Shown here piece by piece: positions 7,301 through 58,800 of a stretch of DNA of 64,000 nt. The notes beneath the pieces were generated by a model. The model saw nothing but the letters and a program-made list of their open reading frames with translations. It had not been told where the DNA came from and made no database searches. The stretch is from a virus. The stretch lies in the IMG/VR virus record IMGVR_UViG_3300029319_000010, positions 50,214 through 114,213 of that record. One strand, written 5' to 3'. Within the stretch, counting starts at the first letter, position 1; every line of letters starts with the position of its first letter. Both the position numbers and the translations under genes were made by a program.

Positions 7301-8008
7301 TTACATCATGTTTCTTCTAAACATTCTGTCTCTTTTTCTATCCATACGTCTATCACGTCTTGCTTGCTGTCTCTCTGTTCTAGCATCTATTCTACCCATC
7401 TTTCTAGCTTGTCTGTCCATACGTCTATCCATTCTTCTTTCTTGTCTGTTCTCTCTTCTGTCCGCTCTACGTGCTTGTCTTTCCTCTCTTCTATCAGCTC
7501 TTCTAGCTTGTCTCATCTCTCTCATTAGGTCACGACCTTCTTTTCTAGCCGCTCTACGCATAAATCTGTTTCCTATTCTAGTTAAAGCTGGATCTGGTCC
7601 TCCCATTCCAGGTGCCATATAGTTAAATCCCATAGTTCCTGGTCCTGACATTCCCATCATATTAAATCCTGGTCTTGCATAAGCTGTTTGCATAGGGTTT
7701 ACAACAGGCATTATATTTGATCCTGTACCCATGCCTGCTTCAACGGCAGAGCTTAAATCTCCAGTAGTATTATAATTAGCTATTCCTTCATCAACCATAT
7801 CTGGATTTAGACCTGCATCTATTAATTCTTCTCTAATTTCTCCCGTATCTTGATACGAAGTCAATTTCTTTCTAGTTCCGCCTCCATACCCCATTCTTCT
7901 ACGAGCTGTCCCACCAGATTTAAGATAACCCATTTTCTTTCTAACACTAGGGTCTAATGCTCTTAATCCGTTATATTTTTTACCTTTTGGTATTGCTTTA
8001 AGTGCCAT
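7301..8008 (-). CDS. Arg/Met/Gly-rich low-complexity protein with protamine-like C-terminus
   Basis: Repeats such as RQARRADRRE and RRMDRRMDR; first gene of the leftward operon. Confidence 0.75.
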   Translation of the reverse strand: MALKAIPKGKKYNGLRALDPSVRKKMGYLKSGGTARRRMGYGGGTRKKLTSYQDTGEIREELIDAGLNPDMVDEGIANYNTTGDLSSAVEAGMGTGSNIMPVVNPMQTAYARPGFNMMGMSGPGTMGFNYMAPGMGGPDPALTRIGNRFMRRAARKEGRDLMREMRQARRADRREERQARRADRRENRQERRMDRRMDRQARKMGRIDARTERQQARRDRRMDRKRDRMFRRNMM

Positions 8009-8074
8009 AATTTTTATTTTAAAATTAGTATTTCATTTTTAAGTTACCCTTCTGTAAAGGATCCCCTCACTATT

Positions 8075-8087
8075 TAATATACAAAAA
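8075..8087 (-). promoter_or_regulatory. Candidate late promoter TTTTTGTATATTA
   Basis: Same motif precedes minus-strand units at 37038, 44738 and 47064. Confidence 0.6.
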
Positions 8088-8233
8088 CTCCCCCGGTAAT
8101 GCAAAAATAATGTGTTTAAGGTTCTAATGGGGTTTATGTTTTTGGCTCCCCCAATAAAGTCCGGCAGTGTACTACCCCCAGGTTGTATACTGGCAATATA
8201 TATAAATCTTAAATAAATTTAAAATTAATAGCT

Positions 8234-8569
8234 ATGGCGACAATAAAAATTAAGAACCACGGTTCTCAAATATTAGTAACTGACTCTGATGTAGTCAGAG
8301 ATGTGCAAGGTAATGAAAAGTGTAATGAAGAGTTTCCTTTTCTAAAAGATGTACCAATGTTAAACATTGATCCAACCGGCAAAGTTGGCATCCTTCCATT
8401 AAAGAAAGGATCCAAAATGGCTGAAGTATTTCTTGGCTTACCCAAAGGTACAAAAGTACCTGTTGAGTTAACCAAGAAAGAAATAGAAGGTGCAGATGGT
8501 AAAATCTACTACCGTGCAAGATTAATCTCTTCATACTTTACAGCAATAAAAGCAAAGGCAGATAAATAA
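8234..8569 (+). CDS. Hypothetical early protein
   Basis: First rightward ORF; A-rich leader; followed by two hairpins. Confidence 0.7.
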   Translation: MATIKIKNHGSQILVTDSDVVRDVQGNEKCNEEFPFLKDVPMLNIDPTGKVGILPLKKGSKMAEVFLGLPKGTKVPVELTKKEIEGADGKIYYRARLISSYFTAIKAKADK

Positions 8570-8634
8570 ATCTGCTTTTTGCTTTAGCTTGTCTTATGGA
8601 AGCTACGGTAATATGGAACTTACTGTAGCTTTTT
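8549..8634 (+). terminator. Two tandem stem-loops, terminator-like
   Basis: AAAGCAAAGGCAGAT/ATCTGCTTTTTGCTTT and AAGCTACGGTAA/TTACTGTAGCTT plus T-run. Confidence 0.6.
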
Positions 8635-8748
8635 ACCTGCTTATATAGCAATCCAGGTCCTGAACTTACGCAGAACAGTTGTACCTGCAACTATACAGCA
8701 ACTTTTTTATCTTTTTGCTCCCAAAATAATTTTTGCACAGCAAAAAGT

Positions 8749-8809
8749 TGTGTGTGTTAGTGTGTAAAGATGAGGTATACAATACCACATTTTACCACTT
8801 AACACCACA
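8749..8809. repeat. Imperfect inverted repeat (about 30-bp arms) with 10-bp-phased ACCAC units
   Basis: Left arm reverse complement ATACCTCATCTTTACACACTAACACACACA vs right arm ATACCACATTTTACCACTTAACACCACA; ACCAC at 8784, 8794, 8804. Confidence 0.75.
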
Positions 8810-8844
8810 TGGTCTAACGGAATGAACCGTATTAAATAATATAG

Positions 8845-9275
8845 CTATAACTACTACATCAGGCGTGCCAAACAGAAGAGTACAAGGTAGTACTCACGGA
8901 TTGATAGTAGTAGTTGTAGTCTTATGTTCTCTCTCTATAGGATAAGAGACATAGTAACCGCAAGGTTATAAATTGGAATTAAATAAATAGAGGTTTAGTT
9001 CTTCGGTAATATAAGTAAAGCACAGTAGGATGCTGTTGAGGAGTATTACTGCACCGGTCTACAAAGCTAGTAGATTGCCAGAGATCTTAGGTAGAAACAC
9101 TACTTAGTCTATTAGAGATGTAGTTATAATATATGTGCACAATGTATTATAACTCTCTCTTCTTATAATCTAACAGAGTAAACTGTATAAAAGAAACTAG
9201 GAGAAGTTAACTGCACATGGTTGCAAACATAGATGCAGAGGGTTAGGAGTAATTACCTAATCTTCTGTCTTCTCC
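8845..9275 (+). ncRNA. Candidate structured non-coding RNA or leader
   Basis: No ORF of 60 aa or more; stems 8845-8857/8907-8919, GCAA-tetraloop hairpin 8955-8968, 9122-9134/9142-9154, 9236-9247/9256-9267 inside 9200-9206/9269-9275; G-U pairs work on the plus strand. Confidence 0.4.
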
Positions 9276-9280
9276 ATCAC

Positions 9281-9324
9281 ATAACGTCCACATACTACGT
9301 TCAAAGTATGAATTCACTTAAATT
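9281..9324 (+). promoter_or_regulatory. Repeated leader element with H-type pseudoknot, copy 1
   Basis: AACGT/ACGTT and CATACT/AGTATG interleaved; 32/34 identity to copy 2 over 9291-9324. Confidence 0.65.
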
Positions 9325-9337
9325 TAATTAACTAAGA

Positions 9338-9616
9338 ATGGAAACATATGAAATAAGAATCTATCCTCATGAATATATGGATAGAGCTAAACAAGATCAC
9401 TTTGCTGCATTTAATATAGCAGATAAAATATCTAATGTAATAAAATTAATGTTAGATTCTGATACTGAAGTAAAATATATTGATGAATCAACTAATGATA
9501 GTTATCAGTATTTAATACTTAATCCAAATAGTCTTGTTACAAAGGAACTAAGAAAGAAAATAGAATTAGTTTTTCCTAAAGTACATTTTGGAAATAGATG
9601 GAGAGAGGTAGCTTAA
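9338..9616 (+). CDS. Hypothetical early protein
   Basis: ORF track; preceded by the repeated leader, followed by a hairpin. Confidence 0.7.
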   Translation: METYEIRIYPHEYMDRAKQDHFAAFNIADKISNVIKLMLDSDTEVKYIDESTNDSYQYLILNPNSLVTKELRKKIELVFPKVHFGNRWREVA

Positions 9617-9713
9617 TGTTACCTCTTTACTATTGGACCGTAACTCACCTATCTTTGGTTGGGCTTGATCACCTGTAATCATTGATCCAAATGACGTGAG
9701 TGAGGTCCTCATT

Positions 9714-9757
9714 ATAACGCTTGCATACTGCGTTTAAAGTATGAATTCACTTAAATT
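9714..9757 (+). promoter_or_regulatory. Repeated leader element with H-type pseudoknot, copy 2
   Basis: AACGC/GCGTT and CATACT/AGTATG. Confidence 0.65.
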
Positions 9758-9764
9758 AAATGAT

Positions 9765-10031
9765 ATGAACTTAGGAATAAAAATATTTAATAAAGCAATG
9801 TTTAAAAGATTTATGGGATTTGCTGACCAAGGTCAAGTATTTAAAAAGGACGCTCTTTATGTACTTAGAAATGAATGGAAATATTCAGATGGAAGTACAG
9901 GAAAATTCTTTGTTACAGGTAAAATGATTTATCAAGCACTAAATGACTCTACAAGTAATGACAGATTTAGTGATATAGATATTAATCATAAAGATTTTAT
10001 TAATCAAATGATTCTAAATCTTTGCGTGTAA
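9765..10031 (+). CDS. Hypothetical early protein
   Basis: Track start 9741 lies inside the repeated element; in-frame ATG 9765 preferred by analogy with copy 1. Confidence 0.65.
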   Translation: MNLGIKIFNKAMFKRFMGFADQGQVFKKDALYVLRNEWKYSDGSTGKFFVTGKMIYQALNDSTSNDRFSDIDINHKDFINQMILNLCV

Positions 10032-10171
10032 AGTAACAACGTCACCACTGACGTACAAACAATACCAGTATTAAAAGTACTGTTATAGTAAACAGTTGTT
10101 ATGATTGTTTATTTAAGTGGGTAGTGATTAAGGAGGGACATTATAGCTACTGTTCTTCCTTAATCCGTTTT

Positions 10172-10245
10172 GGTCTCATAGCTCAATTGGATAGAGCAAC
10201 AGCCTTCTAAGCTGTAGGTTCTAGGTTCAAGTCCTAGTGGGATCA
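10172..10245 (+). tRNA. tRNA-Arg(UCU), CCA not encoded
   Basis: Acceptor GGTCTCA/TGGGATC, D arm GCTC/GAGC, anticodon arm ACAGC-CTTCTAA-GCTGT, T arm CTAGG-TTCAAGT-CCTAG. Confidence 0.95.
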
Positions 10246-10731
10246 CGAAATAAATTGTATAACTTAATAATAATGACTATGAATCTAAATAATATTTTAA
10301 AGAAACTAATAACAACAGAAGATAGAAAAAACTTACATGACTATGTTTTTAATATGCTATTACACAATACAGATACAGCAGTATTAGAGTATTGTATACA
10401 TGTTATCTGTGAAGATAAAAAGCCAATGAGAATAGATATAGCTGATGATATATGGTTTGACCCTAAAGATAATATGTATGACCTTGAAGATGTACTTATG
10501 TATAAAGATAGATTAATTGATGCTAATCTTATGACTGAAGAAGGTCTACTAAAAGGCAAAATTATATCAGACACAAGTTATAAAGAAGAATGTAACCCTT
10601 ATGCAGCAGAATATAAAGTAGAATTTGGTATGAAAAAGTTTAAAGATATTGATAATACCAACTTCTACAAAGAGATAAGGGTTAAAAGACAAAACATATG
10701 GGGAATAGTAGAACCAGAAGATTTGGTATAG
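10237..10731 (+). CDS. Hypothetical protein (true start probably 10273 or 10279)
   Basis: Track GTG start overlaps the tRNA. Confidence 0.7.
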   Translation: MGSRNKLYNLIIMTMNLNNILKKLITTEDRKNLHDYVFNMLLHNTDTAVLEYCIHVICEDKKPMRIDIADDIWFDPKDNMYDLEDVLMYKDRLIDANLMTEEGLLKGKIISDTSYKEECNPYAAEYKVEFGMKKFKDIDNTNFYKEIRVKRQNIWGIVEPEDLV

Positions 10732-10952
10732 TTGACCATGATGTTGTCACTGATCCTGATTTGTCTCTACAAGCTAAAGGTGTTTATGCAGTCATAAGCA
10801 CCTTTTGCAACACCAACAGAACTTGTTATCCATCCATTGCAACTATTGCAGATTTATGTGATGTGAGTACAAGAACTGTGGATAGAAAGCTTAAAGAATT
10901 GAAAGATAAAGGTTATCTTCATAGAAATGGAAAAATAATTAAATTATTATAG
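10698..10952 (+). CDS. Helix-turn-helix protein (HTH_36-like)
   Basis: LSLQAKGVY...CYPSIATIADLCDVSTRTVDRKLKELKDKGYL. Confidence 0.85.
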   Translation: MGNSRTRRFGIVDHDVVTDPDLSLQAKGVYAVISTFCNTNRTCYPSIATIADLCDVSTRTVDRKLKELKDKGYLHRNGKIIKLL

Positions 10953-11029
10953 CTATATATATGCTATATTTATTTATTGCTGTCTCAATTAGATTAGTAT
11001 AAATAAATATAATAGTATACTTTTGTGCT

Positions 11030-11296
11030 ATGATATATCAATTACCAAACGGGCGTATAATAGAACTGACATTAGAACAATACCTAGATTTAACTGATGA
11101 TGAGTTAAAAGATTTAAACGGTCTAGATTCTAGCTACACTACTGACCCTAAAGGTCCTTTCTATAAATCAATTCTTGATAAAGCAAAGAAAGAAAAGAAA
11201 GATATCTCTTCTTCAGGTAATTATGAACCTGGAGTTGATGAGATATCCAAAGATGATATCATTAATGATGAATATTTTCATCGTGATGATACCTAA
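11030..11296 (+). CDS. Acidic hypothetical protein
   Basis: ORF track; TACTTTTG (-7-like) at 11018-11025. Confidence 0.7.
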   Translation: MIYQLPNGRIIELTLEQYLDLTDDELKDLNGLDSSYTTDPKGPFYKSILDKAKKEKKDISSSGNYEPGVDEISKDDIINDEYFHRDDT

Positions 11297-11329
11297 ACAA
11301 CCAAATTAATTAACTAAATATTTTTAAAA

Positions 11330-11917
11330 ATGATTGAAAACAACCAACCAGTTGTCATTTCACGTGATGAAAGTGGCAACATTATTAGAGTATCAAAGAA
11401 CAATCCTGAATACGGCTTTGTTAGAGTAGAGCAACCAACTTTTGCAATAGCAGGAGGATGGGTAGATGACAAAACTAGATCTGCAATTATCAACGGTAAG
11501 CTTGAAAAACTACAAAGAATGCTACCAGCGTTAGAAAAAAATGAAAAGAACTTAAAAGGACAAATTATTATTACTGAACAGTTTGATCCATTCTTTACTA
11601 ACACTGAACATCCTAAGTATGAGCAATTAAGAGATAAAAATCTTAAAGTTGCAGGTGATACAGGTGTAGTTCTTAAAGGTGTAGATCCTGAAACAGGTGA
11701 AGAAAGACCTATTTATAGAAAAACTGAATTCACTAGTGATATGAATGCTACTGATACTTTTATTTCTCACATTAACAGTGATGAGATAAGAGCAGCACAA
11801 GCAGGAACTACAACTAAAGAAGCAAAAGAAGATTTCATGGCAGCAGCAGAAGAAGCTGACAAAGAAGTTGAGAAAGAAGAAGAAGTAGAAATGCAAGATG
11901 AAACTTTTGAGCTATAG
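11330..11917 (+). CDS. Putative single-stranded DNA-binding protein
   Basis: Beta-rich core plus long acidic tail ending DETFEL; followed by a terminator. Confidence 0.5.
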   Translation: MIENNQPVVISRDESGNIIRVSKNNPEYGFVRVEQPTFAIAGGWVDDKTRSAIINGKLEKLQRMLPALEKNEKNLKGQIIITEQFDPFFTNTEHPKYEQLRDKNLKVAGDTGVVLKGVDPETGEERPIYRKTEFTSDMNATDTFISHINSDEIRAAQAGTTTKEAKEDFMAAAEEADKEVEKEEEVEMQDETFEL

Positions 11918-11960
11918 GTCTGTTAACACCTTAAGTTAATAATTTATTTCAAGTGAATTA

Positions 11961-11989
11961 GGGATTGTTAGAAATAGCAATCCCTTTTT
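11961..11989 (+). terminator. Intrinsic terminator
   Basis: GGGATTGTTA-GAAA-TAGCAATCCC-TTTTT. Confidence 0.85.
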
Positions 11990-12017
11990 CTTTATACAAA
12001 CATTTAAATAAATAATC

Positions 12018-12503
12018 ATGTTAGATAAAAATCAAGCAAATAAAATAAAATTACAACAAAGAAAAGATAGATACGAATACATGGGTTTACTAACTGAGTA
12101 TCAATTAGTTATGAACACAGGTAGTTTCGTTGAGTATACTAAATTAAATCCAAAGCAACACTTTATATTTAAAAGAGTATTGCATGGTCTAAAGATGTAT
12201 AATGAAGCAGAGATTGCTAAAATGCATTGGGATAAAAAGAGAAGAGTGATTAAAGTATGGAAGCGTGGTCAAGAGGTTATTAATGAGTTAAAACAATGGG
12301 TAGCTTATAAGCAAGTTCAACCTATTTTTCGTATATTTGCTAAGTCTGAATTAGGCAGGGCAATATATGAATCTGAGTTTGAATATTTACCAGACTACAG
12401 GAATAAACATACACTTAAAGACTTAGGATTAAACTATTCAGATTTAATTCTAAAGTTTATGAGTGTAGGATTAGTTCCTAAAAACTTTTATAGTTTAAAA
12501 TGA
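12018..12503 (+). CDS. Hypothetical protein
   Basis: ORF track, 161 aa. Confidence 0.75.
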   Translation: MLDKNQANKIKLQQRKDRYEYMGLLTEYQLVMNTGSFVEYTKLNPKQHFIFKRVLHGLKMYNEAEIAKMHWDKKRRVIKVWKRGQEVINELKQWVAYKQVQPIFRIFAKSELGRAIYESEFEYLPDYRNKHTLKDLGLNYSDLILKFMSVGLVPKNFYSLK

Positions 12504-12763
12504 GACAGAAATCAAAAAAAATGCAGAAGCTTGATGCAAAGTATAGTAAATTAAGGAGGGTATTTCTTGATGACTATCCTATGTGTCAAGCTGCACTGCC
12601 TAAATGTACTGTTAAATCTACAGATGTGCATCATAAGAAAGGTAGGGGGATCTACCATAATGATGTAAGTACGTGGTTATCAGTATGTAGGAACTGTCAC
12701 AACTGGATAGAACTAAATCCAGTAGAGGCAGAAGAATTAGGATTTTCAATTAAAAGAATATGA
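12500..12763 (+). CDS. HNH-family Zn-binding endonuclease
   Basis: CQAALPKC...DVHHKKGRG...VCRNCHNWI. Confidence 0.75.
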   Translation: MRQKSKKMQKLDAKYSKLRRVFLDDYPMCQAALPKCTVKSTDVHHKKGRGIYHNDVSTWLSVCRNCHNWIELNPVEAEELGFSIKRI

Positions 12764-12996
12764 TTAAATTATTACAATACTTAGCAGTAACTTTAAAAAG
12801 AGAAGATTTATATAATCTTGCAATGTTTTTGTCAGAGAATCCTGACATTATAGATCAAGAAACTTTAATGCATATAGTAGATGAAGTTGATGGATGGAAC
12901 AGTAACAATGAACTGTACCGTGAAGAACACAATAAACTTATTGAAGATAAAAAACTTAAAGATTTATTAAGAGATAATAACATTAATTTAAATTAA
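12760..12996 (+). CDS. Hypothetical protein
   Basis: ORF track; ATGA-coupled. Confidence 0.65.
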   Translation: MIKLLQYLAVTLKREDLYNLAMFLSENPDIIDQETLMHIVDEVDGWNSNNELYREEHNKLIEDKKLKDLLRDNNINLN

Positions 12997-12997
12997 G

Positions 12998-13195
12998 ATG
13001 AGAAAAAAAATTTTTAATATGAGTAAACATTTATTAGTATTACTTATAATGTTAACAGCACTTAGTTGCGGATCATACGGTATGTTTTATACACTATTTC
13101 ATGGATGGGTATACATAATATTATTTATAATTAGTGGTGCATCATTTGCACTTAGTATGTTTATACTATATACACTTTCTAATCAATCAAAATAA
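12998..13195 (+). CDS. Small two-TM membrane protein
   Basis: Two hydrophobic stretches. Confidence 0.6.
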   Translation: MRKKIFNMSKHLLVLLIMLTALSCGSYGMFYTLFHGWVYIILFIISGASFALSMFILYTLSNQSK

Positions 13196-14301
13196 TGGAA
13201 GTGAAGGAAATATCAAGAGATAAAGTACAAGCTGATGCATTAGATGTAGCAATACAGAATGTAAGAGCAACTCTAGCAGTATCTATGGGAGTAGGTAAAA
13301 CTAGAGTTGCTATTCAGCATTTAATGAAACTATATGATTCTTTTATAAGGGTGTTAGTTGTTGTACCAAAGTGGTCTGTAAAAGATTCTTGGGAAGATGA
13401 ACTACAAAAGATGGGTGAGCTTAGACTTGTACATCATATAGAGTTTTGCACATACTTATCATTAAATAAAAAGAATCCAAATGATTATGATATAGTCTAT
13501 CTTGATGAATGTCATAGCTTATTAGAATCACATGAATCATTTCTCTCTGAGTTTAAAGGTAGAATACTGGGACTTACTGGTACACCACCAAGATCAGGAG
13601 AGAAGCTAAAGATGGTTAATAAGTATTGTCCTGTTAAATATACATTTAGTGTAGATGATGCAGCTGACAATGATATACTTAATGACTATCAGATTATAGT
13701 ACATGAACTTGAATTATCAAGAGTAAAAAATGTTAAGAAGTCTACAAGAGATGGAAGAACATGGTATACATCTGAGAAAGCAGATTATGATTACTTTACT
13801 GGTGCACTGGGAGATGCACAAACACCAAAGCAGAAACAATATTTATCTATTATGCGTATGAAAGCAATGATGGATTATCCTACTAAAGAAAATTATGCTA
13901 AAGGTATAATTAAAAATATAGGATCTAAATGTATTGTCTTTGCTAATACGCAAGCACAAGCAGATAGAATGTGTCAACATAGTTATCATTCTAAAAACAC
14001 TGCATCGGAGGATAACTTACAGTTATTTAGTGATGGTAGAATAGATAAGCTATCTTGTGTATTACAACTAAGTGAGGGAGTTACTATACCTAACTTACGT
14101 CAAGGTATTATTATGCATGCATATGGCAATGAAAGAAAATCAGCACAACGTATTGGTAGGTTGCTGCGACTTAATCCTACTGAGACTGCTACATGTCATA
14201 TATTATGTTATAAGAATACACAAGATGTTAAGTGGGTTAACTCCGCACTTAGTTCTTTTGATGAAACTAAAGTTAAATATTATAATCCGTTAAATAAATG
14301 A
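13195..14301 (+). CDS. Superfamily 2 DExH helicase
   Basis: MGVGKT, LDECH, GLTGT, LSEGVTIP, QRIGRLLR. Confidence 0.92.
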   Translation: MEVKEISRDKVQADALDVAIQNVRATLAVSMGVGKTRVAIQHLMKLYDSFIRVLVVVPKWSVKDSWEDELQKMGELRLVHHIEFCTYLSLNKKNPNDYDIVYLDECHSLLESHESFLSEFKGRILGLTGTPPRSGEKLKMVNKYCPVKYTFSVDDAADNDILNDYQIIVHELELSRVKNVKKSTRDGRTWYTSEKADYDYFTGALGDAQTPKQKQYLSIMRMKAMMDYPTKENYAKGIIKNIGSKCIVFANTQAQADRMCQHSYHSKNTASEDNLQLFSDGRIDKLSCVLQLSEGVTIPNLRQGIIMHAYGNERKSAQRIGRLLRLNPTETATCHILCYKNTQDVKWVNSALSSFDETKVKYYNPLNK

Positions 14302-37062: not shown

Positions 37063-38136
37063 TTAAAGTATGATATAGTTTATTCCAAACTTGAAATCAT
37101 GCCAGTCACGGTTCCAGTATTTGTTATATTTTCCTTCAATAAAGATACCTAGGTTCTTATTGATCTTATAACCAAATATTAAACCACCTGAATAATCTAT
37201 CCAATTGCCACCATTAAAATTATGATATGAGTACTCACCCCCTGTATCCAAATGCACCGGTAGTAGGTTCGCCCAAGAATGAAACCATATTGTTTTAGTG
37301 TAGTGATAGTAGTCTAAACCAACTACTAGAGAATGACACCACTGAACAGGTAATGCATCCTTTTTTGATTTCACATAATCATTAAGAACTTGGGGGACCA
37401 CTACCTCTTCCCATACTTCACTACTTGTAGCCACGACTGCTCCACTAGGGTCTAAGTAGCTTATTCCTGTTGGGTCAAACCCAATTGTGTAGCCTTCCTC
37501 TAAAGCAAGGTTTGTGTAGTGTATGTTTCCATTAGATAGTACCCACTCAGCTAAAGGGTCATAACCGTAAGGTTCTGATATTCTTTGTACAGCTCCTGCA
37601 GTAACTGAAAGTTTTCTACCTATCTTTTGTCTATATCGTTGTGACGCTTCCATGTATTCTACATCAGCAAAGCCGTCTTGTAAGTACTCTATCTTAACCA
37701 CCCATCTATCTGCTAAGTATCGTAAAAAGTGATGTTGGTCTACATAAGAGTTACCTTGTTGTCTTTTATAATCTGCCTCAAACAAAAACTCAAATCCTCT
37801 AGTTCGTCCAATAGTAGCGGCATCAGAGTAAGAAGTTTCTGTACCATCTTTGAATGTATTAGCTTTATTCTCGTATCCAAATCTTTGTATCTTTCTTACA
37901 CCTACAGTAAAAGCATAGTCAAATGGAGTTTCTATTACATCGGTTTGAAGTCCATCTAATATAGAATATGTATTCTGATCTGAAATAGAGGTACCACCAT
38001 TTACTGCAGCGTAGAATGTAGAGAACTTAAAAGTTTTCTTAAGTTCTGTTTTAAACTTGCTATCCTGAGCACAACACTTTTTAGGTGCTACACAAGACAA
38101 TAATAGTAATAATATGGTTAGTAGTATTTTTTTCAC
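37063..38136 (-). CDS. Putative outer-membrane beta-barrel protein
   Basis: Signal peptide; alternating aromatic strands; C-terminal strand DFKFGINYIIL. Confidence 0.7.
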   Translation of the reverse strand: MKKILLTILLLLLSCVAPKKCCAQDSKFKTELKKTFKFSTFYAAVNGGTSISDQNTYSILDGLQTDVIETPFDYAFTVGVRKIQRFGYENKANTFKDGTETSYSDAATIGRTRGFEFLFEADYKRQQGNSYVDQHHFLRYLADRWVVKIEYLQDGFADVEYMEASQRYRQKIGRKLSVTAGAVQRISEPYGYDPLAEWVLSNGNIHYTNLALEEGYTIGFDPTGISYLDPSGAVVATSSEVWEEVVVPQVLNDYVKSKKDALPVQWCHSLVVGLDYYHYTKTIWFHSWANLLPVHLDTGGEYSYHNFNGGNWIDYSGGLIFGYKINKNLGIFIEGKYNKYWNRDWHDFKFGINYIIL

Positions 38137-41100
38137 AACTTAATTATTTTCTTGGTTATTCTTATTTTATCATATGTAATAATCAAATTATACATTCCAT
38201 CGGGATAATCTGATAAATCTATTCTTTTAATATTATCTGTTTGTATAATCTCTCCTACCATATTATATAGTTCTACATCAACATCTAGTCTTGTTTCTAT
38301 AGTAAATGTATTTGCTGTAGGATTGGGGTATACAATTATATCACTACCTGATAGCTCATCTAAGTTAACTGGCCATCCTTCTTCACAATAATTATACATA
38401 GATTGACAGGTCTCATCCCATACCTCAGTACAACAATAGTTATCTATATCTATAACCCAAGCATAACAAGGATCATTTAACCAATAAGGTTCTCCAGGTC
38501 CACCATAGCAACCAGCATCATAAAGACAAGTGGTATTATCTGGTAAGTTAACTAACGGATCATAGTTATATGCATTAGGATCAGCACATCCTTCTATTAT
38601 AACTACACAACTACCATCATCAAAACAAGCATCTTCATCATAGTTTAGTGCAGTACTATCTGTACAACCTCCAACATAACAACATGAATTATCTAAAGTA
38701 TTTGCTAACGGATCAAAGTTAAGAGCCATTGTGTCTGTACAACCATATACAAATTCTATACACGTACCATTATCTGTATTTGCTAATGGGTCATAGTTAA
38801 ATGCAGTAGAATCCATGCAACCATATACATAAGGTATACAGTTACCGCTATCAGTATTTGCAGTAGAATCATAATTAAACATGGTAGAATCCATACATCC
38901 TATAATAACACCTTCACAGCTTCCATCATCTGTATTGGCATCTGCATTATAGTTAAAAGCCTCTGGATTGGTGCAACCTAGTATAGGGTATATACATCCA
39001 TTATTAGTATTTGCTAACTCATTATAATTTAACGCAGTTGAATCTGTACAACCAATCACAACATCAATACATGAGCCGTTGTTTGTATTTGCTGTGGCAT
39101 TAAAATTAAATGCACTTGGATCTGTGCATCCATATATAGCATATATACACCCTGAATTAGTATTAGCGGTAATTTGATAATTTAAAGCTGTATCATCAGT
39201 GCATCCTATTACTACTGGTTGACATGAATCATCATCAATATTAGCATTTACATTAAAGTTAAATGCTGTTGGGTCAGTACATCCTAGAACAGGATATACA
39301 CAACCTGAGTTAGTATTAGCTAGTTGATCATAGTTTAGTGCTGTATCATCTGTACACCCTATAACAACATCAACACAACTATTGTCAGTAGTATTAGCTT
39401 GTGGATTATAGTTAAATGAATCAGGATTTGTACAACCATAAACAAATGAAATACATCCTACATTTGTGTTAGCAGTTTCATCATAATTATATGCTTCAGG
39501 ATCCGTACATCCATATGCAAACTCTATACATGATCCATCATCAGTGTTTGCATTAACATTAAAATTAAACATTGTAGGATCCATACAACCATATACAAAT
39601 GGCTCACATGGATTATTTTCATCTGCTGTATTAGCTTCTGCATTATAATTAAATGCTGTTTCATCTAAACAACCGTATATAAATGGTTCACATAAATTAT
39701 TATTTGTGTTAACATCTACACCATTTATTCCTGTTAATGGATTTCCTACTCCATCATTATCATAATCATTATATGTATAAGAGTTTGGATTTAAACAACC
39801 ATATACAAAAGGATAACATGAGCCATCATCGGTATTAGCTAGCTCATTATAGTTAAATTGATTTGACTGTGTACAACCTTCAACAACTGGTTCACAACTA
39901 TCATCATCTACATTTGCATCTGGATAGTAATTAAATGCTTCATCATCTGTACAGCCATACACTATTTCTATGCAAGAGTCATTATCTGTATTAGCGTCTT
40001 CATCATAGTTAAACGCAGCAGAGTCTGTACAACCATTAATAACAGGCTGACATGATCCTGGTTCTAGAGTATTTGCTTCTTGATCATAATTAAATGCTAA
40101 TGGGTCTGTACAACCTAATATAGTTGGTATACAAGGATCTGTTTCATCTTCAACAGCTACTTGATTAACTGTTGCTAGTTCATTATAGTTATATGCAGTT
40201 TCATCTATACAGCCGAATATAGCATATACTTCACATGTTCCATCATCAAAATCTGCTTCTATTGCATTTTGTTCTATATAATTATAATATTCAATATAAG
40301 CTGCATCAGTACAACCAGGGTTGTAATAACAGTCATTACTGCTTGTATTTGCTATTGGATCAAAGTTAACTGCTTCTAAATCTAAACAACCATAAATTTT
40401 AGGAATACAGTTATTACCACACAGAGCTTGACCTTGATATAGAAAGTTGTATTGATTATAAGAAAGTATTGGATTTGTATAAGGGTTAGTTCCACCTTCT
40501 AATATAATGTCTCCTATAGGGTTAATTATTTCAAAGCTGCATTGTTCTGTTGTTTGTTGAGATTGACCAAAAGAATAAAAATAAGCTTTAACCATTTCAC
40601 TGGTATTAAAATTAATTTCAGTTTCAAAAACTGTTTGATCACTTTGTAATGTAAAAGGCCCCCACCACTGATCACCTTGTGTAACTACTAAAAATGAACC
40701 TGCCCAACCATTATCAGCCCAATCCGTCAATCTTAATGTATTTGTACAATTAGGGTTTGATAGTTGTGTATTTGCATCAGGGTTAAAATTAAAAGCATCA
40801 GGGTTTATACAGCCAAATATTCTTTCTGTTTCACATGATCCGTCATCTTCATTAGCATAAGGGTTAAACTCTAAATACTCATTGTTTGTACATCCTTGTA
40901 CAGTCTCTGGTGCACATGGTGTTACTTGACCAACATCAATTATAAGCTCTCCAAAATCACCTATACCTTCTGATATTGTATCACCACATTCTGTATATAC
41001 CGCCCAAGTACCATCTATACCACCCCATTGAGCTCCACCAAGACCATCTCCATATGAGTCTTGTAACCAAAACATTATGTTAGTATTGTCATCAATGCAA

Positions 41101-42299
41101 GTTTGATATTCTACTGTAGTACCTACTGGCACACCACAATACGTTGTGTTATCATTTACTTCTGCTAAAGGTGTTCCATCACCATACTGATCATATATTA
41201 TCCAACTAGTTTCACAGCCATACTGATCCACCATTATTTCAACTGTAACTAAAGTTTTACCTGCTGTGCATGTTATATCTCCTCCATTACATGAACCATC
41301 GTCTGTAGTTGCTGCAGGGTTATAACTAGCTGCTTCTGGGTCTGTACAACCTGGTATGTTAATACAAGATCCATCATCAATACCTGCTTCTTCATTATAG
41401 TTTAATGCATTTGGGTCTGTACATCCATAAATAAAAATACAAGGATCTACCTGCCATGTTTCTCCTACTACAGCATTTACATTTACACCTGGAGTATTTG
41501 TATTAGGGTTTCCATCTGCTTCTGCTTGTGTTGATACTACATAGATTAATGTTGTGGGTGAATTACAACCTCCACCATCAAAAGCTACAGCATCTATAAA
41601 CCATTGTTGTCCATTATCACCAACATATATTCTTGCACCAATTTGTAGAATATCTTGATATTGTAAATAAAATTCGGGATCAACTCCAAAGTGAGTATTA
41701 GTAAAGGATACCAAGTTACATGTTGAACCTGGTGTTATAATGCCTGTTGGTATATCTGCTGCAAGTGGATTATAATTAAATGCAAACTCATTTATACATC
41801 CATAAATATATGTACAACTACCATCATTAATTAAGGCATCTTCGTTAAAGTTTTCTGCTAATTCATCTGTACAACCTTGTAAAGGAGGAGCACAAGGTGC
41901 TATAGTTAATGTATCTACTAAAGATATTGGTCCGCTAGGTTCTGTTGTTAGTACTGAATCTTCATAAAAAGCACCTTCTACATACATTAAACTATCTTGA
42001 CAAGCATTACTTATTGAAAACCATCCATTATTACCACCCCAAAAAGATCCAGCTAAACCATCACCATAAGCATCATTTAATGAAATAATATATTCACCTG
42101 CTGGTATACTTATTATAGTATCATGTAAAAATTCTGGCAATAAAAATGGTTCATTTACAGCTATTGCAGCACCGCTAATATCATAAAGTTCCCATGATGT
42201 TTCACCAGGATATTGGTCTGTTTGTAACTGTATATGTATCCAAGATTCTTGAGTAAATACTAGTATAGGAACTAGTAATAAGAATATTAGTTTTTTCAT
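38133..42299 (-). CDS. T9SS type A sorting-domain protein with about 29 GCTDxxAxNY repeats
   Basis: Sec signal MKKLIFLLLVPILVFT-Q; C-terminal IVYPNP...LYNMVGE...IDLSDYPDGMYNLII...TKKIIKL. Confidence 0.9.
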   Translation of the reverse strand: MKKLIFLLLVPILVFTQESWIHIQLQTDQYPGETSWELYDISGAAIAVNEPFLLPEFLHDTIISIPAGEYIISLNDAYGDGLAGSFWGGNNGWFSISNACQDSLMYVEGAFYEDSVLTTEPSGPISLVDTLTIAPCAPPLQGCTDELAENFNEDALINDGSCTYIYGCINEFAFNYNPLAADIPTGIITPGSTCNLVSFTNTHFGVDPEFYLQYQDILQIGARIYVGDNGQQWFIDAVAFDGGGCNSPTTLIYVVSTQAEADGNPNTNTPGVNVNAVVGETWQVDPCIFIYGCTDPNALNYNEEAGIDDGSCINIPGCTDPEAASYNPAATTDDGSCNGGDITCTAGKTLVTVEIMVDQYGCETSWIIYDQYGDGTPLAEVNDNTTYCGVPVGTTVEYQTCIDDNTNIMFWLQDSYGDGLGGAQWGGIDGTWAVYTECGDTISEGIGDFGELIIDVGQVTPCAPETVQGCTNNEYLEFNPYANEDDGSCETERIFGCINPDAFNFNPDANTQLSNPNCTNTLRLTDWADNGWAGSFLVVTQGDQWWGPFTLQSDQTVFETEINFNTSEMVKAYFYSFGQSQQTTEQCSFEIINPIGDIILEGGTNPYTNPILSYNQYNFLYQGQALCGNNCIPKIYGCLDLEAVNFDPIANTSSNDCYYNPGCTDAAYIEYYNYIEQNAIEADFDDGTCEVYAIFGCIDETAYNYNELATVNQVAVEDETDPCIPTILGCTDPLAFNYDQEANTLEPGSCQPVINGCTDSAAFNYDEDANTDNDSCIEIVYGCTDDEAFNYYPDANVDDDSCEPVVEGCTQSNQFNYNELANTDDGSCYPFVYGCLNPNSYTYNDYDNDGVGNPLTGINGVDVNTNNNLCEPFIYGCLDETAFNYNAEANTADENNPCEPFVYGCMDPTMFNFNVNANTDDGSCIEFAYGCTDPEAYNYDETANTNVGCISFVYGCTNPDSFNYNPQANTTDNSCVDVVIGCTDDTALNYDQLANTNSGCVYPVLGCTDPTAFNFNVNANIDDDSCQPVVIGCTDDTALNYQITANTNSGCIYAIYGCTDPSAFNFNATANTNNGSCIDVVIGCTDSTALNYNELANTNNGCIYPILGCTNPEAFNYNADANTDDGSCEGVIIGCMDSTMFNYDSTANTDSGNCIPYVYGCMDSTAFNYDPLANTDNGTCIEFVYGCTDTMALNFDPLANTLDNSCCYVGGCTDSTALNYDEDACFDDGSCVVIIEGCADPNAYNYDPLVNLPDNTTCLYDAGCYGGPGEPYWLNDPCYAWVIDIDNYCCTEVWDETCQSMYNYCEEGWPVNLDELSGSDIIVYPNPTANTFTIETRLDVDVELYNMVGEIIQTDNIKRIDLSDYPDGMYNLIITYDKIRITKKIIKL

Positions 42300-52866: not shown

Positions 52867-55800
52867 CTATTTACCTTTACATTTTTTAATATCCTCCATA
52901 AATTCCTCTTTTGTATCATATAGTTGTTTAGGATCTTGATACAAAGCTATCAAATCTTCTGCACTTCTCACACCTAAACCACCTAAATTTTCTGCTACAG
53001 CAATATTTTGTTTTTCTGACTCTGTAAGTTTATCATACTCTTCAGTCAAAAACTTAACATCCTCATTTTGTTCACCGGGTATTTCAAGAGCATCTTCTTT
53101 TAATCCTGTTAAATCTATTTCTAACTCTTCTTGTGCTTCTTCTAATTCCTCTGCAGTAAATTCAAGATCTTTAAATGGATCAAGCCCCTCTTGCTCTTCA
53201 GTTATTTTTACTTCTTTTGGTTTAACATCTGCCCCTTTCTCATTTTTAAAACCTTGCTCAGTGGCACTTATAGCATCACCTAATTCTCCTAACTGATTAG
53301 TATCTTCTTCAGCTAGTCCTTCTACTAAGCTAGTAGGATCAGTTTCCATAAACTCTTGCATAGGTATCTTATTTTCTAATCTGTCTTTTCTATTTTCCAT
53401 CAATAAGCTAAACGCAGGTCTTTTACTTGTAAATACATCACCTATATCTGTTGCACTATCTACACCTAAAGATTCAGTTTCAGTGTATATAGCATTAACA
53501 CCTAATATTTCACTAACTCTACCATCTGTTTCTGATTTTAAATTATACATTAAAGTTTGTTGATCAGCACCTCTATCTAAAATCTTTGGTACAGTAACAC
53601 TTGTTAACACTTCTGTAATAAACGTTGTCTCTTTTCCTGACCCAGTTTTAATTTTTCTAACTAATGGGAATTTAATTAAGTCATAATCTTTATTATTGAT
53701 TGTAAGATTAACAACCTCAAAACCTTTTCCTTTTAATTGTTTTTTATTTAAGCTCAATCTCTTTTTAAAAGCCTCAACACTAAGTTGTTTACCATATTGT
53801 TTTTTCTTTTGAGCTTCATACTTTCTTATAAGTCTACCTTTGAGTTTTCTATCTTGAGCAGGGCCAAGTTTTGCAAATAAGTTTACATAAGTTTCACCTA
53901 GACCTGAATCAAATTGAACTGCTCCACCTTGAACTGCTGCAGGTTGTTTTTCTGCAACTTCTTCTGTAGTCTTCTTTACAAGAGTTAAATAACCTTTTAG
54001 TCTTGAATCTGTATTAGACATTGCATCATAATACTCTTTAGTATATCCTGTTAAAATAGAAAATTTTGATGAAAAGTTTTTTACACTTTTTTGTTTCTTA
54101 GTTAATCTTATTATATCAGTAATTTCATATGGATTACCCTCTGCACCTATTCGTATAATATGACCCTTCTTTGCATTAGCATATAGTTTATTCTCTGTAG
54201 ATATTGCTTTTATCTGACCAGAAAATAATCCCTCTTCTAATGATATGTCTTTTTTATATCTACTATCTTCAGCAGCTATATTATAGTTTAAACTTGACTC
54301 ATCTTTAAATTCTTTTAATGCTAATCTTGCATTACCTGCCCTACTAACTTTTAAATTAAAACTATTTTTATGTGATAGCAATATACTTTTTACAACTTGA
54401 TTAGTTATTTCATTTAACGTTGCTCCAAAAACTTCTCTATATCTTGTATCATCTAATGTTTCTGATTTTAAAAGACTATGTGCAGGGCTTACAGCACTAA
54501 TGATATCCTTCAACATTACAGGAGGCATAACATTTATAAAAGAATCTCTTGCAAAAGTAAAGCCATCTTTAACTAATAAATAGTTTAATAGATGGTTCAT
54601 GTCTTGATAGTTTTGTTCATCTTTTGTATAGATGTTTGCTATATCACGTCCTATCTCTATCATCATTGCATCTGGAACTGTCTTCCAAGTATTTGCAACA
54701 ATCCTATCAATCATTTGCTTATTATTAGGATTATCATATGTAATAGGTTTTAAGAAGTCATATAAGAAGTAACTATCAGGATTATTTTTCATAAGCCTTC
54801 TCATTACATCCATAATAATTAATGGTGTATTCTCACTTGCTTCAGGATATATAATACCATTATCTAGTGTTACTAACCTTTTTCCATCACCTCTAGTTTT
54901 TAGTCTATGTATAAAAGACTTTGCTGTTAAATATGATATTATACTTTTCTTTATTTCACCTCTACTCTCAACAGATCTTGCAGCACCTTTATAGTGAGAA
55001 AGAACTATATCAGTTATTTGTTCAAAAGGTTTTGTTTTAGAAATAAACACAGAAGGAGTAACTTTATTAATCATACTTGCCATTCTATATAATGTTGTCA
55101 AATATGGTTGTGTTTTAACTCCACCAATATCATTTATCTGACCAAAGAACTTTCTAAAGTCTACAGGTACACTACTATTTTTAAAATCACTATCTGATTT
55201 ATTTATATCTAAGTCATCTAAAGATTTTAAAGATCTTTCTAGGTCTAAAGTTGATGATCCTATACCATCTATAAAGTTTGGTAGAGCAATAAACTTATTT
55301 GTTGCTCGTTTAATTCTTTCTAAAGTTAAAAATTGTTGTAAAACTTTAAGCTCTGCTTCTTCTAATTTTTCATATGCTTCTGAGCCAACCTCAACTTCAC
55401 CCGTAAACGTTTTACTTAAAGTTTTTACACCTCCAACATACTCCCATGCATTTAATTGTTCTGTTAAAACTTCTGTTGACATACGTAAAGTAGCAGCATT
55501 TTCTAGAAGGAATGGTTTATCGGTTGTCATTGCTTCTATCTTTTTTTCTATAATTTTAGAAATATTAGCAGGTTCATTATTTCTAATTTTACTACTATAC
55601 ATTCTATATACATCTTTAATTGTAGGATGATTAACCATCATTACAGGAATTCTAATTGGCATACCAAGTGCTACACCATTTGCTACTGTAGATAGTGCTT
55701 GTTTATTAAGACCTAAGAAATATGCTATATTGTATTTAGCATTGTCTGTCATCCCTGTGATCTCTGCAGATCCCATAAACGCTCTTCTTATAAGTTCATT

Positions 55801-58800
55801 TTGATTTTTTGGATCTAAAATATAAGGGTTTGTAAATTCATTATAGTTTTGACCATCTATAACTAGTTTGCCAAACTGTGATCCATCTCTTAAATCTAAA
55901 CCATATTCTGAAAATATATGAAAGTTCAAGTTTTGTGGAACTATAGAACCAATGTTCTTTGCACCATCATGAAAACTATCATATATCCTTAGTATATCAT
56001 TTAAGAAATCTGTATCAGTTGAAGAATCAAAAATTCTTTTTCTATTAGCAAAAGACTTAACTTGACTTTCTAAGTTGGTAAGTAAATCAGTTAATGGATC
56101 TATAGAAGTAGGCTCATTAGCAACACCAACACTACTATATTCAGAAGGTGCTTCCATTCTTGGATTAGACTGTAATGCTATTTTAGTATCTAGAAGTATA
56201 TTATTATTTGCTGCCTCATAAGGCTCTATTTTAAATTTATTTTTATAATCAATATACTCTTCTTTTGACTTTGGTTTATTTAACTGATGCAGTGCTCCCA
56301 AAATTTCTTCTTGACTTATATCTACTTTTATATATTTAGGCCCAAACTCATCTTCCTTTTTATTATATGTAAAGTCCTCTGCCTTTGCAAATCTTAATTT
56401 TGATTCTTTTGCATTCCATCCTGGTACTGTCTGATCTTCATTTTCTCTAAGCCACTCAGTCCACATAACTTCTACCTCATCCTCTTCATATAAAAGTTTG
56501 TATTCTTCTTCAAGTGCTCCTGGATTTTTTCTTTTATACTTTCTAAGAGCAAGATTATATATAGATCCTGACCTTTGCACTTCTCTTTCTACAAAGTTTA
56601 AGTACTCTTCATATAATGTATCCTCTGATTTATTATTTACACCCTTAGTTGATCTATTAGGATCTACTGGCACACCATCACCATACTCAATAATTTTACC
56701 ACCCTTTACATATACATCTTTTTCTTGATTATATACTTGATCAATATCAAGGTCACGTCCAGAACGTAGCATATAAGATTGAGAAATCATACCTGATGAT
56801 GCCATCCATGGTGGTAAAAAGTCTACTATCTTACCATAAGCAGCAGAGTGAGCATCCTGTGCAGGTACAGTAGCAGTATATAAATCACTTACTTCATCTG
56901 GTATAACTTCATCATTTTTTATTTGACTCATGTAAGATCTTTGAGGTGCAACAATCATTTCATGATATCTTAAATCACTCTTTGATCCATCTTTATTTAA
57001 CTTAACTACACTACCTCTTAAACCATCTATAAATAAATCTCCTACTTCTAATGGCTTATCTAAAACTTGATCTAGATATTCTTTTGTAATGTTATCTTCT
57101 CTTTTTAAGTTCAAAGGCTGACCTGTTCTTGTTAATCTTAAAGCTTCTCTTTGATCTGATGGTTTTAATTCATAACCTCTAACAACCTCCCAAGCTACAG
57201 GTATACCATCTTCTATAAGTTTTACTCTCTTAACTCTAGCTCCTAATGCATTTGTAATTAATGTTGTATTAAAACCAGGAACTCTTTCATTAAATGTACT
57301 ATTAAAGAATGTTAAAAATAATTGTTCAAACTTTGTTGAAGTTAAACTATTATTAAGATCAGGTGAGTTTTTAAATAACTCTACCATTTGATTATTTGCC
57401 TGAGATGCCTCTAAAGATGATATTGCATAGTCTTTAAAAGTTTGTAAATCTGGTGTCATTTTACCTAGATCTCTAGCTTCTTCAAGTGCTACAATAGCTT
57501 CATCTAAAGTAAATATTAAATTCATTTTAGATAGTAAAGAAGACTTAGCTTTTTCTCCCTCTACTTTATTATATATACCTCTTAGTTTTCCTAAAGTCAT
57601 TGACTCACCAAATACATTTATATCTGCACTATTATCTTGCTCAGATGAAACTATAATTTTCATTTGTTTAAGATTGCTAATTGTATTTTTACCAGCAACT
57701 TGTTTTTGTTGTTGATACATAAAGTTTGCATCAAGATATGTAATTGAGTTAGTTAAATCTTTAGGACTTAATGTTTCACTTAGTGTAGAAATATCTTCAA
57801 AGCTTAATACTTTACTCTTTTCTGCTTTTGATGCAGAAGCAGGAGTAGCTAAAGCAACAACTTCTTGATTAGCTTCTATTGCTTTTAAGTTTTCATGAAT
57901 AGCAAAAAACTCTGGGTTTGTTATAGATGGAGTTGTAAAGTTTGTAGAAGGATCTCCAACTATCTGATCTGATAAAAACATAATAGACATTTTATCATAA
58001 ATCTTACCATCACCATAAGCAAACTTTTCACTTTGAACCTGACCACCTAAAGAAAGTAAGCCATTCACTCCTTCAGATCCTAAAATTTCACTAACGTTAA
58101 TAATTTCTCCTTGCTCAATTCTGTTTATTAATTCTAGTTTAGCTTTAGAAGTACCAACCCCATAGTTTAAATACTTTGCACCTTTCATTGTTGCAAATAT
58201 CAAACCATCAGTTTCTTCCATACCTTTAAATTTTCTATCTTCAAAAATAACTTGAGCAATAGAATTTTTACCCATAGTATGAGTAATACCAAACTCAGGT
58301 GCTATAGTTTCAAAAGCTACATCTCTACCAGTTATTGCAAACTGTTTATTTCTTTTGTTCTCAACTGTTGCATCTGCTAAACTTTTATTTGTATTACCAA
58401 GTAAAGCTTTATTTATTGTAGACGCATTTAAATAAGCATTAAAAAATATTTGTCTTAGGTTATGTTGTTGTTGACCCGCAACTAAATTTAAATCTTGAGT
58501 AACAGTGCCTGCTACAGGATCACCTGCTGATGTATTTAAATTACCAGAGATATTACTAGTTACTAGCTTTAAAATATCCTCATTTACTATCATATCATTA
58601 AACATAGTAAACTTATTCTCAAGTGTTTCCATCACCTGATATTGTAATTGATCTATAAGTATACCTGGAGTTTCTTCAACTGCCTCAGTAAAAGTATATA
58701 GTTCATTTGTTTCTGGATTTTTTGTTACAAGTAAATCCTCAACTCCTGTTATAATAGAATCATCTTCTATAAATTCATCAGTAGATTCTGTAAATAAACT

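Follow-up and report, generated by a model that had tools for sequence, protein, structure and literature searches.

A duplicated pseudoknot-like element heads small genes at the start of the replicative module of a marine crAss-like phage

The sequences analysed here point to a real and new regulatory module in marine crAss-like phages, in which a pseudoknot or otherwise structured expression signal appears to stand at the head of portable gene cassettes. The element was studied in a window of 64 kb, that is, the whole stretch of DNA that was analysed, which forms the last 64 kb of an IMG/VR virus record of 114,213 bp that is 98% complete. The GC content is about 31%. As to function, we tentatively favour, with a confidence slightly short of even, a portable 5′ leader RNA pseudoknot that would control translation or protect the 5′ end.

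The element occurs as two full repeats, at positions 9281-9324 and 9714-9757. Its 30-base core is made of a stem S1 (AACGY/RCGTT) interleaved with a stem S2 (CATACT/AGTATG). The order is S1 5′ arm, three-nucleotide loop, S2 5′ arm, S1 3′ arm without a spacer, three-nucleotide loop and S2 3′ arm, a layout which would correspond to the topology of an H-type pseudoknot. The features of the two copies are as follows.

9281..9310, + strand: class-1 element, copy 1; AT, then the interleaved arms of S1 and S2
9283-9287 (AACGT) with 9297-9301 (ACGTT): S1 of copy 1
9288-9290 (CCA): loop 1 of copy 1
9291-9296 (CATACT) with 9305-9310 (AGTATG): S2 of copy 1
9302-9304 (CAA): loop 3 of copy 1
9311..9337, + strand: AU-rich leader of copy 1, AATTCACTTAAATTTAATTAACTAAGA, ending at the ATG at 9338
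9338..9616, + strand: small ORF 1, 92 aa
9714..9743, + strand: class-1 element, copy 2; interleaved arms of S1 and S2
9716-9720 (AACGC) with 9730-9734 (GCGTT): S1 of copy 2
9721-9723 (TTG): loop 1 of copy 2
9724-9729 with 9738-9743: S2 of copy 2
9735-9737 (TAA): loop 3 of copy 2
9744..9764, + strand: AU-rich leader of copy 2, AATTCACTTAAATTAAATGAT, ending at the ATG at 9765
9765..10031, + strand: small ORF 2, 88 aa counted from 9765

An earlier note on this DNA had described two 44-nucleotide copies with these stems, and the sequence agrees at both places. It had also described a change of S1 from T-A to C-G, with all remaining differences confined to the three-nucleotide loops. This is borne out by the comparison of the copies, since the six differences are the two bases of the compensated S1 pair, three bases of loop 1 and one base of loop 3. 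The spacing of 21 to 27 nucleotides to the ATG given in the same note is correct when counted from the end of S2 (27 nucleotides to 9338, 21 nucleotides to 9765), not from the end of the 44-mer.

In the window, exactly two occurrences were counted for the 21-mer and two for the 30-mer pattern, where shuffled sequences would give 0.03 and 0.00, and the element is present exactly twice in the whole 114-kb genome. A descriptor scan for the bare 5+6 bp H-type topology gave about 0.85 chance occurrences per strand of the genome. Topology alone is therefore weak evidence. Because the bare fold arises by chance, the case for the element rests on its duplication and on its conservation and covariation in relatives. 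Folding energies of the element, computed with nested pairs only, were unremarkable. Rfam covariance models run on 8000-13000 (E ≤ 1) returned a tRNA only, with no match to a small ribozyme or to a preQ1-type pseudoknot.

The proteins encoded by ORF 1 and ORF 2 are unrelated to each other, and neither matches a Pfam or PHROG family. A recent tandem gene duplication was rejected on this ground and because the two upstream blocks are not alike. In copy 2, an in-frame ATG (9741) lies inside S2 and is not kept as a start in relatives. An upstream ORF starting from the ATG in S2 was also rejected; its frame and length are not conserved and it stops after 2-12 codons in many instances.

Relatives were gathered in two ways. 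Using the helicase, 66 related loci were collected, and the element is present in 6 of them. IMG/VR was scanned with a degenerate pattern, and the JGI and Tara metagenomes with a looser one in which the four variable positions were left free. Pooling the scans gave 17 distinct instances in marine viral or metagenome contigs, with 1-3 instances per contig. The same pattern had zero matches in 596 Gb of prokaryote genomes, and the idea of a host-derived element was rejected on this ground. The exact 20-mer was not found in IMG/VR. Covariance models R1 and R2, run on about 1.5 Mb of related loci, recovered nothing beyond the pattern matches. When S1 was left free in the pattern, only TAACG[TC]…[AG]CGT members and obvious chance matches were obtained; when S2 was left free, no family members were found among the matches listed, at least 120 in number. 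The instances fall into three haplotypes.

Haplotype 1: pair 13:23 (S1) T-A, pair 21:32 (S2) C-G; 8 instances
Haplotype 2: pair 13:23 (S1) C-G, pair 21:32 (S2) C-G; 2 instances
Haplotype 3: pair 13:23 (S1) C-G, pair 21:32 (S2) T-A; 7 instances

Both pairs are Watson-Crick in 17/17 instances, as T-A or C-G, and the metagenome search had left all four bases free. Thus, the relatives extended the proposed pseudoknot by a second covarying pair, in S2. The earlier note had named covariation in homologs beforehand as the test of its structure; covariation is present in the relatives and the claim is upheld. Overall, 96% of the cells are paired and 34/34 variable cells are complementary. The covariation score and the percentage of pairing were reached by 0/500 shuffles, a result to be read with the limit that the data demand only at least two independent double substitutions. 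The S1 covarying pair is moreover the one that first suggested the structure. The search patterns fixed most stem positions, and divergent members may be missed. Sliding the registers lowered the paired fraction to 16-49%. All 7 instances of haplotype 3 lack pairing at A9:T27, the outermost pair of S1.

The stems are nearly invariant, with variation at 2 of the 11 pairs. No G-U or G-T intermediate was seen in the 17 instances, so that the folding strand is not readable from the variation. Loop 1 is variable, with T as its first base in 16/17 instances, and loop 3 keeps an invariant AA. All three haplotypes coexist in contig L080 and two of them in the window. One set of proteins must accept all of these haplotypes, and therefore pairing rather than base identity is probably what is read at the variable positions. 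These comparisons argue that base pairing is under selection and that the element works as a folded single-stranded nucleic acid.

The position of the element with respect to genes is also constrained. In all 17 instances it has the orientation of the downstream small ORF. The distance from S2 to the ATG is 20-27 nucleotides in 16/17 instances and 20-23 nucleotides in 14/17. Copy 1 of the window stands at the upper end of this range (27 nucleotides), and in contig L083 the ORF starts about 105 nucleotides downstream. Across the instances, the downstream proteins belong to diverse and unrelated small families without a Pfam or PHROG match. Conservation has a sharp 5′ edge, at N-TAACG. Upstream of it, the instances have no sequence in common, and most often a strong hairpin stands there. 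The leader past S2, A(C/T)T(C/A/T)ACTTAAA(T/A)T…ATG, is also found at genes that lack the element, including after the class-2 boxes described below.

The genes of the window change strand near position 8000: those to the left lie on the − strand, and a module on the + strand spans 8234 to about 34000. The helicase of this module (13195-14301) shares about 30% identity with proteins from the IAS virus and from crAss-like phages of Flavobacterium, Bacteroides and Cellulophaga. In a phage protein of 1388 aa (38133-42299, − strand), a C-terminal sorting domain of type IX secretion was recognised (Por_Secre_tail, E = 2e-11). All related contigs are of marine origin, Tara Oceans among them. From the kinship of the helicase and the type IX sorting domain, it follows that the source virus is an uncultured marine crAss-like phage of a Bacteroidota host. 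Phages of the crAss-like group are among the most abundant viruses known. A megablast search of GenBank phages found no close relatives of the source phage.

The early class of the crAss-like phage phi14:2 is its rightward replicative module, which the injected virion RNA polymerase gp66 transcribes (10.1101/2020.03.07.982082). Abundant early ncRNAs arise there from long intergenic tracts, g004-g006, at the head of the replicative module, and a common motif upstream of the early transcripts was not found (10.1101/2020.03.07.982082). The two pseudoknot-headed genes of the window may be called "early" by likeness to phi14:2 only.

Further signals surround the two copies, on the same strand.

8913-8963, + strand: conserved block, the most conserved non-coding stretch of the locus; a small hairpin lies inside it and GTAACCGCAA at its end
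9171..9186, + strand: class-2 box, TAACAGAGTAAACTGT; positional alternative to the class-1 element in relatives
9200..9275, + strand: structured block before copy 1, closed by GGAGAAG/CTTCTCC; 96% identical to L017:2731-2805
9635..9708, + strand: structured block before copy 2, closed by GGACC/GGTCC; 94-95% identical in L026 and L028
10172-10246, + strand: tRNA-Arg(TCT), directly preceded by an imperfect 18-bp hairpin (10126-10165)

Both window copies of the element begin 5 nucleotides after the closing helix of a structured block. The block at 9200-9275 contains a 13-bp inner stem with three G-U pairs on the + strand. These pairs indicate reading as + strand RNA, reaching at least to where the element begins. 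In contigs L017 and L064 and at copy b of L080, the upstream hairpin ends with a T run, resembles a terminator and directly abuts the element. More generally, the ORF-free tracts 8570-9280 and 9597-9708 (+ strand) are densely structured, with G-U pairs on the + strand and with a block order that is shuffled among relatives. They recall the early ncRNAs of phi14:2 or T7-like RNase III sites. The tRNA-Arg region (block 10034-10295) is 86-93% identical in several relatives.

The class-2 box has the consensus (AATC)TAACAGAGTAAACTGT(W)(Y)AAATC and is commoner than class 1. About 45 instances were counted in the related loci, with 0-3 copies per genome and always in the orientation of the replicative module (for instance L003:269; L009:4818 and 5346; L064:6303 and 6428). 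It heads either a leader and a small ORF, with about 36-55 nucleotides to the ATG, or short structured non-coding blocks at a variable distance. The class-2 box looks like a phage-specific promoter. It also contains a weak hairpin (−1.6 kcal/mol as DNA). A post-hoc alignment gives a lead that this hairpin may be homologous to class 1 (ACAG/CTGT as compared to ACGY/RCGT, loop 1 being a three-nucleotide insertion).

Class 1 and class 2 both start with TAAC and replace each other. In six upstream contexts, the same block is joined either to the pseudoknot element or to class 2, and the junction is exactly TAAC. One gene (MKVFGFNRYGF…) is headed by class 2 in L003 and L009, and by the pseudoknot element in L077. 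A further case is the near-identical phage G013 (contig L003), whose helicase is 98% and whose giant protein is 99% identical to that of the window. At the locus corresponding to 9166-10295, G013 has one class-2 cassette with a 63-aa ORF (MKVFGF…), where the window has a structured block and two pseudoknot cassettes. This difference is a recent replacement of cassettes. It illustrates the way in which marine phages that are nearly identical exchange small early genes.

The three signals of the window (9171, 9281 and 9714) are confined, within the whole genome, to the head of the replicative module, which runs over 25 kb on the + strand. The conserved block at 8913-8963 reaches up to 100% identity over 39-51 nucleotides where the helicases are 84-91% identical. 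In G003, a complete relative which has neither class 1 nor class 2, the first early gene comes after the conserved block and a leader; in L021 too, the block directly precedes this gene. The conserved block is a candidate for the primary early signal or for the end of an ncRNA. The pseudoknot element is an accessory, portable cassette head.

An injected polymerase could in principle read such signals, and the phage encodes one. A giant ORF (52867-63999, − strand) is cut by the end of the record to a reading of 3663 aa; in complete relatives the protein has 5040-5293 aa. The catalytic site GSDFDIDKMY of gp66 aligns with GRDLDIDQVY in the window, at residues ~2367-2376 (pairwise BLASTP, E = 0.023). 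The homologous site in G003 and G005 reads G(A/S)DFDIDK(L/I)Y, so that DLDID of the window stands against DFDID in the relatives and in phi14:2. By the alignment at the catalytic motif and the DFDID of the relatives, the phage has a crAss-type virion polymerase, of the two-barrel gp66 type, an enzyme placed solely by pairwise BLASTP and by this motif of the relatives. A six-frame search of the genome with gp66 as a query gave no match. The giant ORFs had no RNA polymerase match in PDB, PHROGs or Pfam, and tblastn against phages gave none.

The giant protein of the window is 24-36% identical to those of G003 and G005, for which the helicases are 91% and 72% identical. A 25-mer of the conserved block (8935-8959) is nevertheless identical at 25/25 positions in G003 and G005, and class 2 is perfect in G005. 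The signals of the early region therefore seem to travel with the replicative module, not with the polymerase, as seen for the conserved block and class 2 only. The divergence of the giant protein (24-36%) as compared to that of the replicative modules (72-91%) might reflect very fast evolution or an exchange of modules.

As functions, the earlier note had offered a translational operator, a nuclease-blocking element or an ssDNA promoter for the virion polymerase. In the reading that we favour, the element would head a portable early-gene cassette and act in the transcript. The sequences establish the element and its copies, together with their covariation, spacing and modular use; we infer that RNA is the strand that folds and that the effect is on translation or on stability. 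The 30-nucleotide core would form a compact H-type RNA pseudoknot, with an S1 of 4-5 bp and an S2 of 6 bp stacked end to end. Loop 1 (three nucleotides, U first) would cross S2 and loop 3 (NAA) would cross S1. The fold is predicted to start 1-2 nucleotides past the conserved 5′ edge and to stop 20-23 nucleotides short of the start codon. It would be followed by an unstructured AU-rich leader (…ACUUAAAUUAAAUGAYAUG). Most likely, the element would set the level of translation of the small downstream gene. It may lie at the upstream border of the ribosome-binding region and serve there for docking or as an operator. Alternatively, it may be a 5′-terminal fold that guards the mRNA once the long early transcript has been started or cut just upstream.

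Several observations led us to favour a leader RNA. The coupling to the start codon is tight, whereas class 2 also precedes non-coding blocks. The fold begins 1-2 nucleotides from the 5′ edge, as is the case in 5′-protective structures. The surrounding blocks fold as + strand RNA with G-U pairs. RNA H-type pseudoknots typically have U first in loop 1 and AA in loop 3, a pattern that the loops of the element suit. The two hairpins are also more stable as RNA (−1.3 to −6.1 kcal/mol at 37 °C, −3.4 to −10.2 at 15 °C) than as DNA (−2.7 to −4.1 kcal/mol, z −1.1 to −1.7), with loops of 8-9 nucleotides. Finally, the neighbouring motifs are identical despite a diverged virion polymerase, which makes conserved host machinery or early-module proteins an easier explanation.

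Other points are contrary to a leader RNA. Where terminator-like hairpins abut the element, in three contexts, the element itself would have to contain a promoter. At an exact junction, a 16-nucleotide box that looks like a phage promoter takes its place. Near-invariant stems without G-U pairs are more typical of a site read by a protein. A three-nucleotide loop 3 over a 5-bp stem is sterically tight, and the ORF of L083 is located about 105 nucleotides downstream.

Several of these points would be accounted for by a fold-dependent early promoter, which we regard as possible but doubtful. Here, the injected crAss-type virion polymerase or a partner protein would read folded single-stranded or melted DNA, following the logic of the N4 hairpin promoters with a pseudoknot-like fold, and transcription would start in or just past S2. 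The layout repeats as a hairpin, sometimes with a T run, a conserved signal, a short leader and a small ORF. A promoter would fit the grouping of all three signals where the module begins and their absence elsewhere, as well as the six exact interchanges with class 2 and the shared TAAC start. Bacteroidota promoters have the −33/−7 consensus TTTG/TAnnTTTG, and the element is unlike this consensus. A scan for + strand sigma70-like sites overlapping the element, made with a consensus of the sigma70 type for a host that belongs to the Bacteroidota, found none. A gp66-type enzyme is encoded, as judged at the DFDID site; gp66 itself transcribes ssDNA and not dsDNA in vitro, and an early promoter motif for it is not known (10.1101/2020.03.07.982082). 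N4 promoters also mix conserved stem bases with positions at which only pairing is kept (PMC4496689).

Against such a promoter, the DNA hairpins are weak and their 8-9 nucleotide loops make extrusion from duplex DNA implausible. The virion polymerases are only 24-36% identical between genomes with identical P0 and class-2 motifs. In the complete relative G003, the first early gene comes right after the conserved block, with neither class. With the ATG so close, just ~10-24 nucleotides would remain as a leader. Taken together, the weak DNA hairpins and the diverged polymerase beside identical motifs tilt the balance away from a sequence-specific promoter of the virion polymerase. To our knowledge, a DNA pseudoknot promoter is without precedent. 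The narrower proposal, that the crAss-type two-barrel polymerase recognises the element only as a pseudoknot-like folded DNA promoter, appears unlikely.

The very high conservation of the stem bases and the crisp boundaries would also be expected from a plain double-stranded DNA promoter or operator, used by a phage early protein or by the host polymerase. The repeats would then be half-sites, or the covariation coincidental. An HTH protein is encoded nearby (10698-10952). Interleaved palindromes with a half-site spacing of 14 bp and an offset of ~8 bp would however make an unusual dimer site. Moreover, one protein would need to read three haplotypes in L080, and two in the window, that differ at both symmetric positions. 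Together with the complementarity of every variable cell, this makes a double-stranded site improbable. A recombination or mobility signal, that is, a crossover point shuffling early-gene cassettes like T4-like PeSL or folded integron attC, would explain why one upstream block can be followed by different cassette heads exactly from TAAC on, and why G013, 98-99% identical, has a different cassette set. It is very improbable, since shuffling at a shared regulatory sequence is an expected by-product of homology without a dedicated function, no recombinase was identified at the locus, and both the orientation and the constant distance to the start codon suggest a role in expression.

Whether the element is a leader RNA or a folded-DNA promoter, either outcome would be new for crAss-like phages. 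If the promoter reading is true, it would be the first defined start signal for the crAss-type two-barrel polymerase family and the first pseudoknot-shaped promoter. The question bears on how the injected polymerase of crAss-like phages finds early genes, and on how early expression is tuned in hosts that lack Shine-Dalgarno pairing. For both, this clade supplies a short and well-delimited structure-dependent signal, natural compensatory variants and a class-2 alternative at the same junctions.

Four known systems can be compared with the locus. As in the early ncRNA region of phi14:2, long structured ORF-free tracts head a rightward replicative module in a marine crAss-like phage. Unlike in phi14:2, where a repeated motif upstream of the early transcripts was not reported, the motif is repeated here, and the ncRNA regions share no sequence similarity. 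The PeSL (promoter-early/stem-loop) cassettes of T4-like phages (PMC2839356, PMC4122927) also place a stem-loop and then a conserved expression signal between small variable ORFs, and replacements between close relatives likewise end at the motif. They carry sigma70-type early promoters and a conserved terminator, whereas the hairpins upstream of the element are not conserved, and the element is unlike a host promoter and has base pairs that covary in its core.

The early promoters P1-P3 of N4 are DNA hairpins read by the injected virion polymerase (PMC4496689). As for P1-P3, 2-3 clustered copies are located at the head of early genes in a phage with an injected polymerase, and conserved stem bases are combined with positions that keep pairing only. 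The N4 signal is however a single GC-rich hairpin with a stem of 5-7 bp and a purine-rich loop of three nucleotides near −11, as compared to two AT-rich interleaved repeats (5 + 6 bp) with 8-9 nucleotide loops in the element. The N4 enzyme is a T7-like single-subunit polymerase, whereas that of the window phage is of the two-barrel gp66 type.

The differences from the gene 32 leader of T4 and T2 are clear. There is no sequence similarity to it, and the element is more compact (a loop 3 of three nucleotides as compared to about 7) and closer to the ATG. The element heads diverse unrelated ORFs, not an autoregulating gene for an ssDNA-binding protein, and its RNA fold is predicted. The gene 32 leader forms an H-type pseudoknot with stacked stems, followed by unstructured AU-rich UUAAA-type repeats up to the start codon. 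Similarly, both stems of the element are paired and an AU-rich leader of 20-27 nucleotides runs to the ATG in 16/17 instances. The closest functional likeness of the element is thus the T4 gene 32 leader, with its pseudoknot followed by an AU-rich operator.
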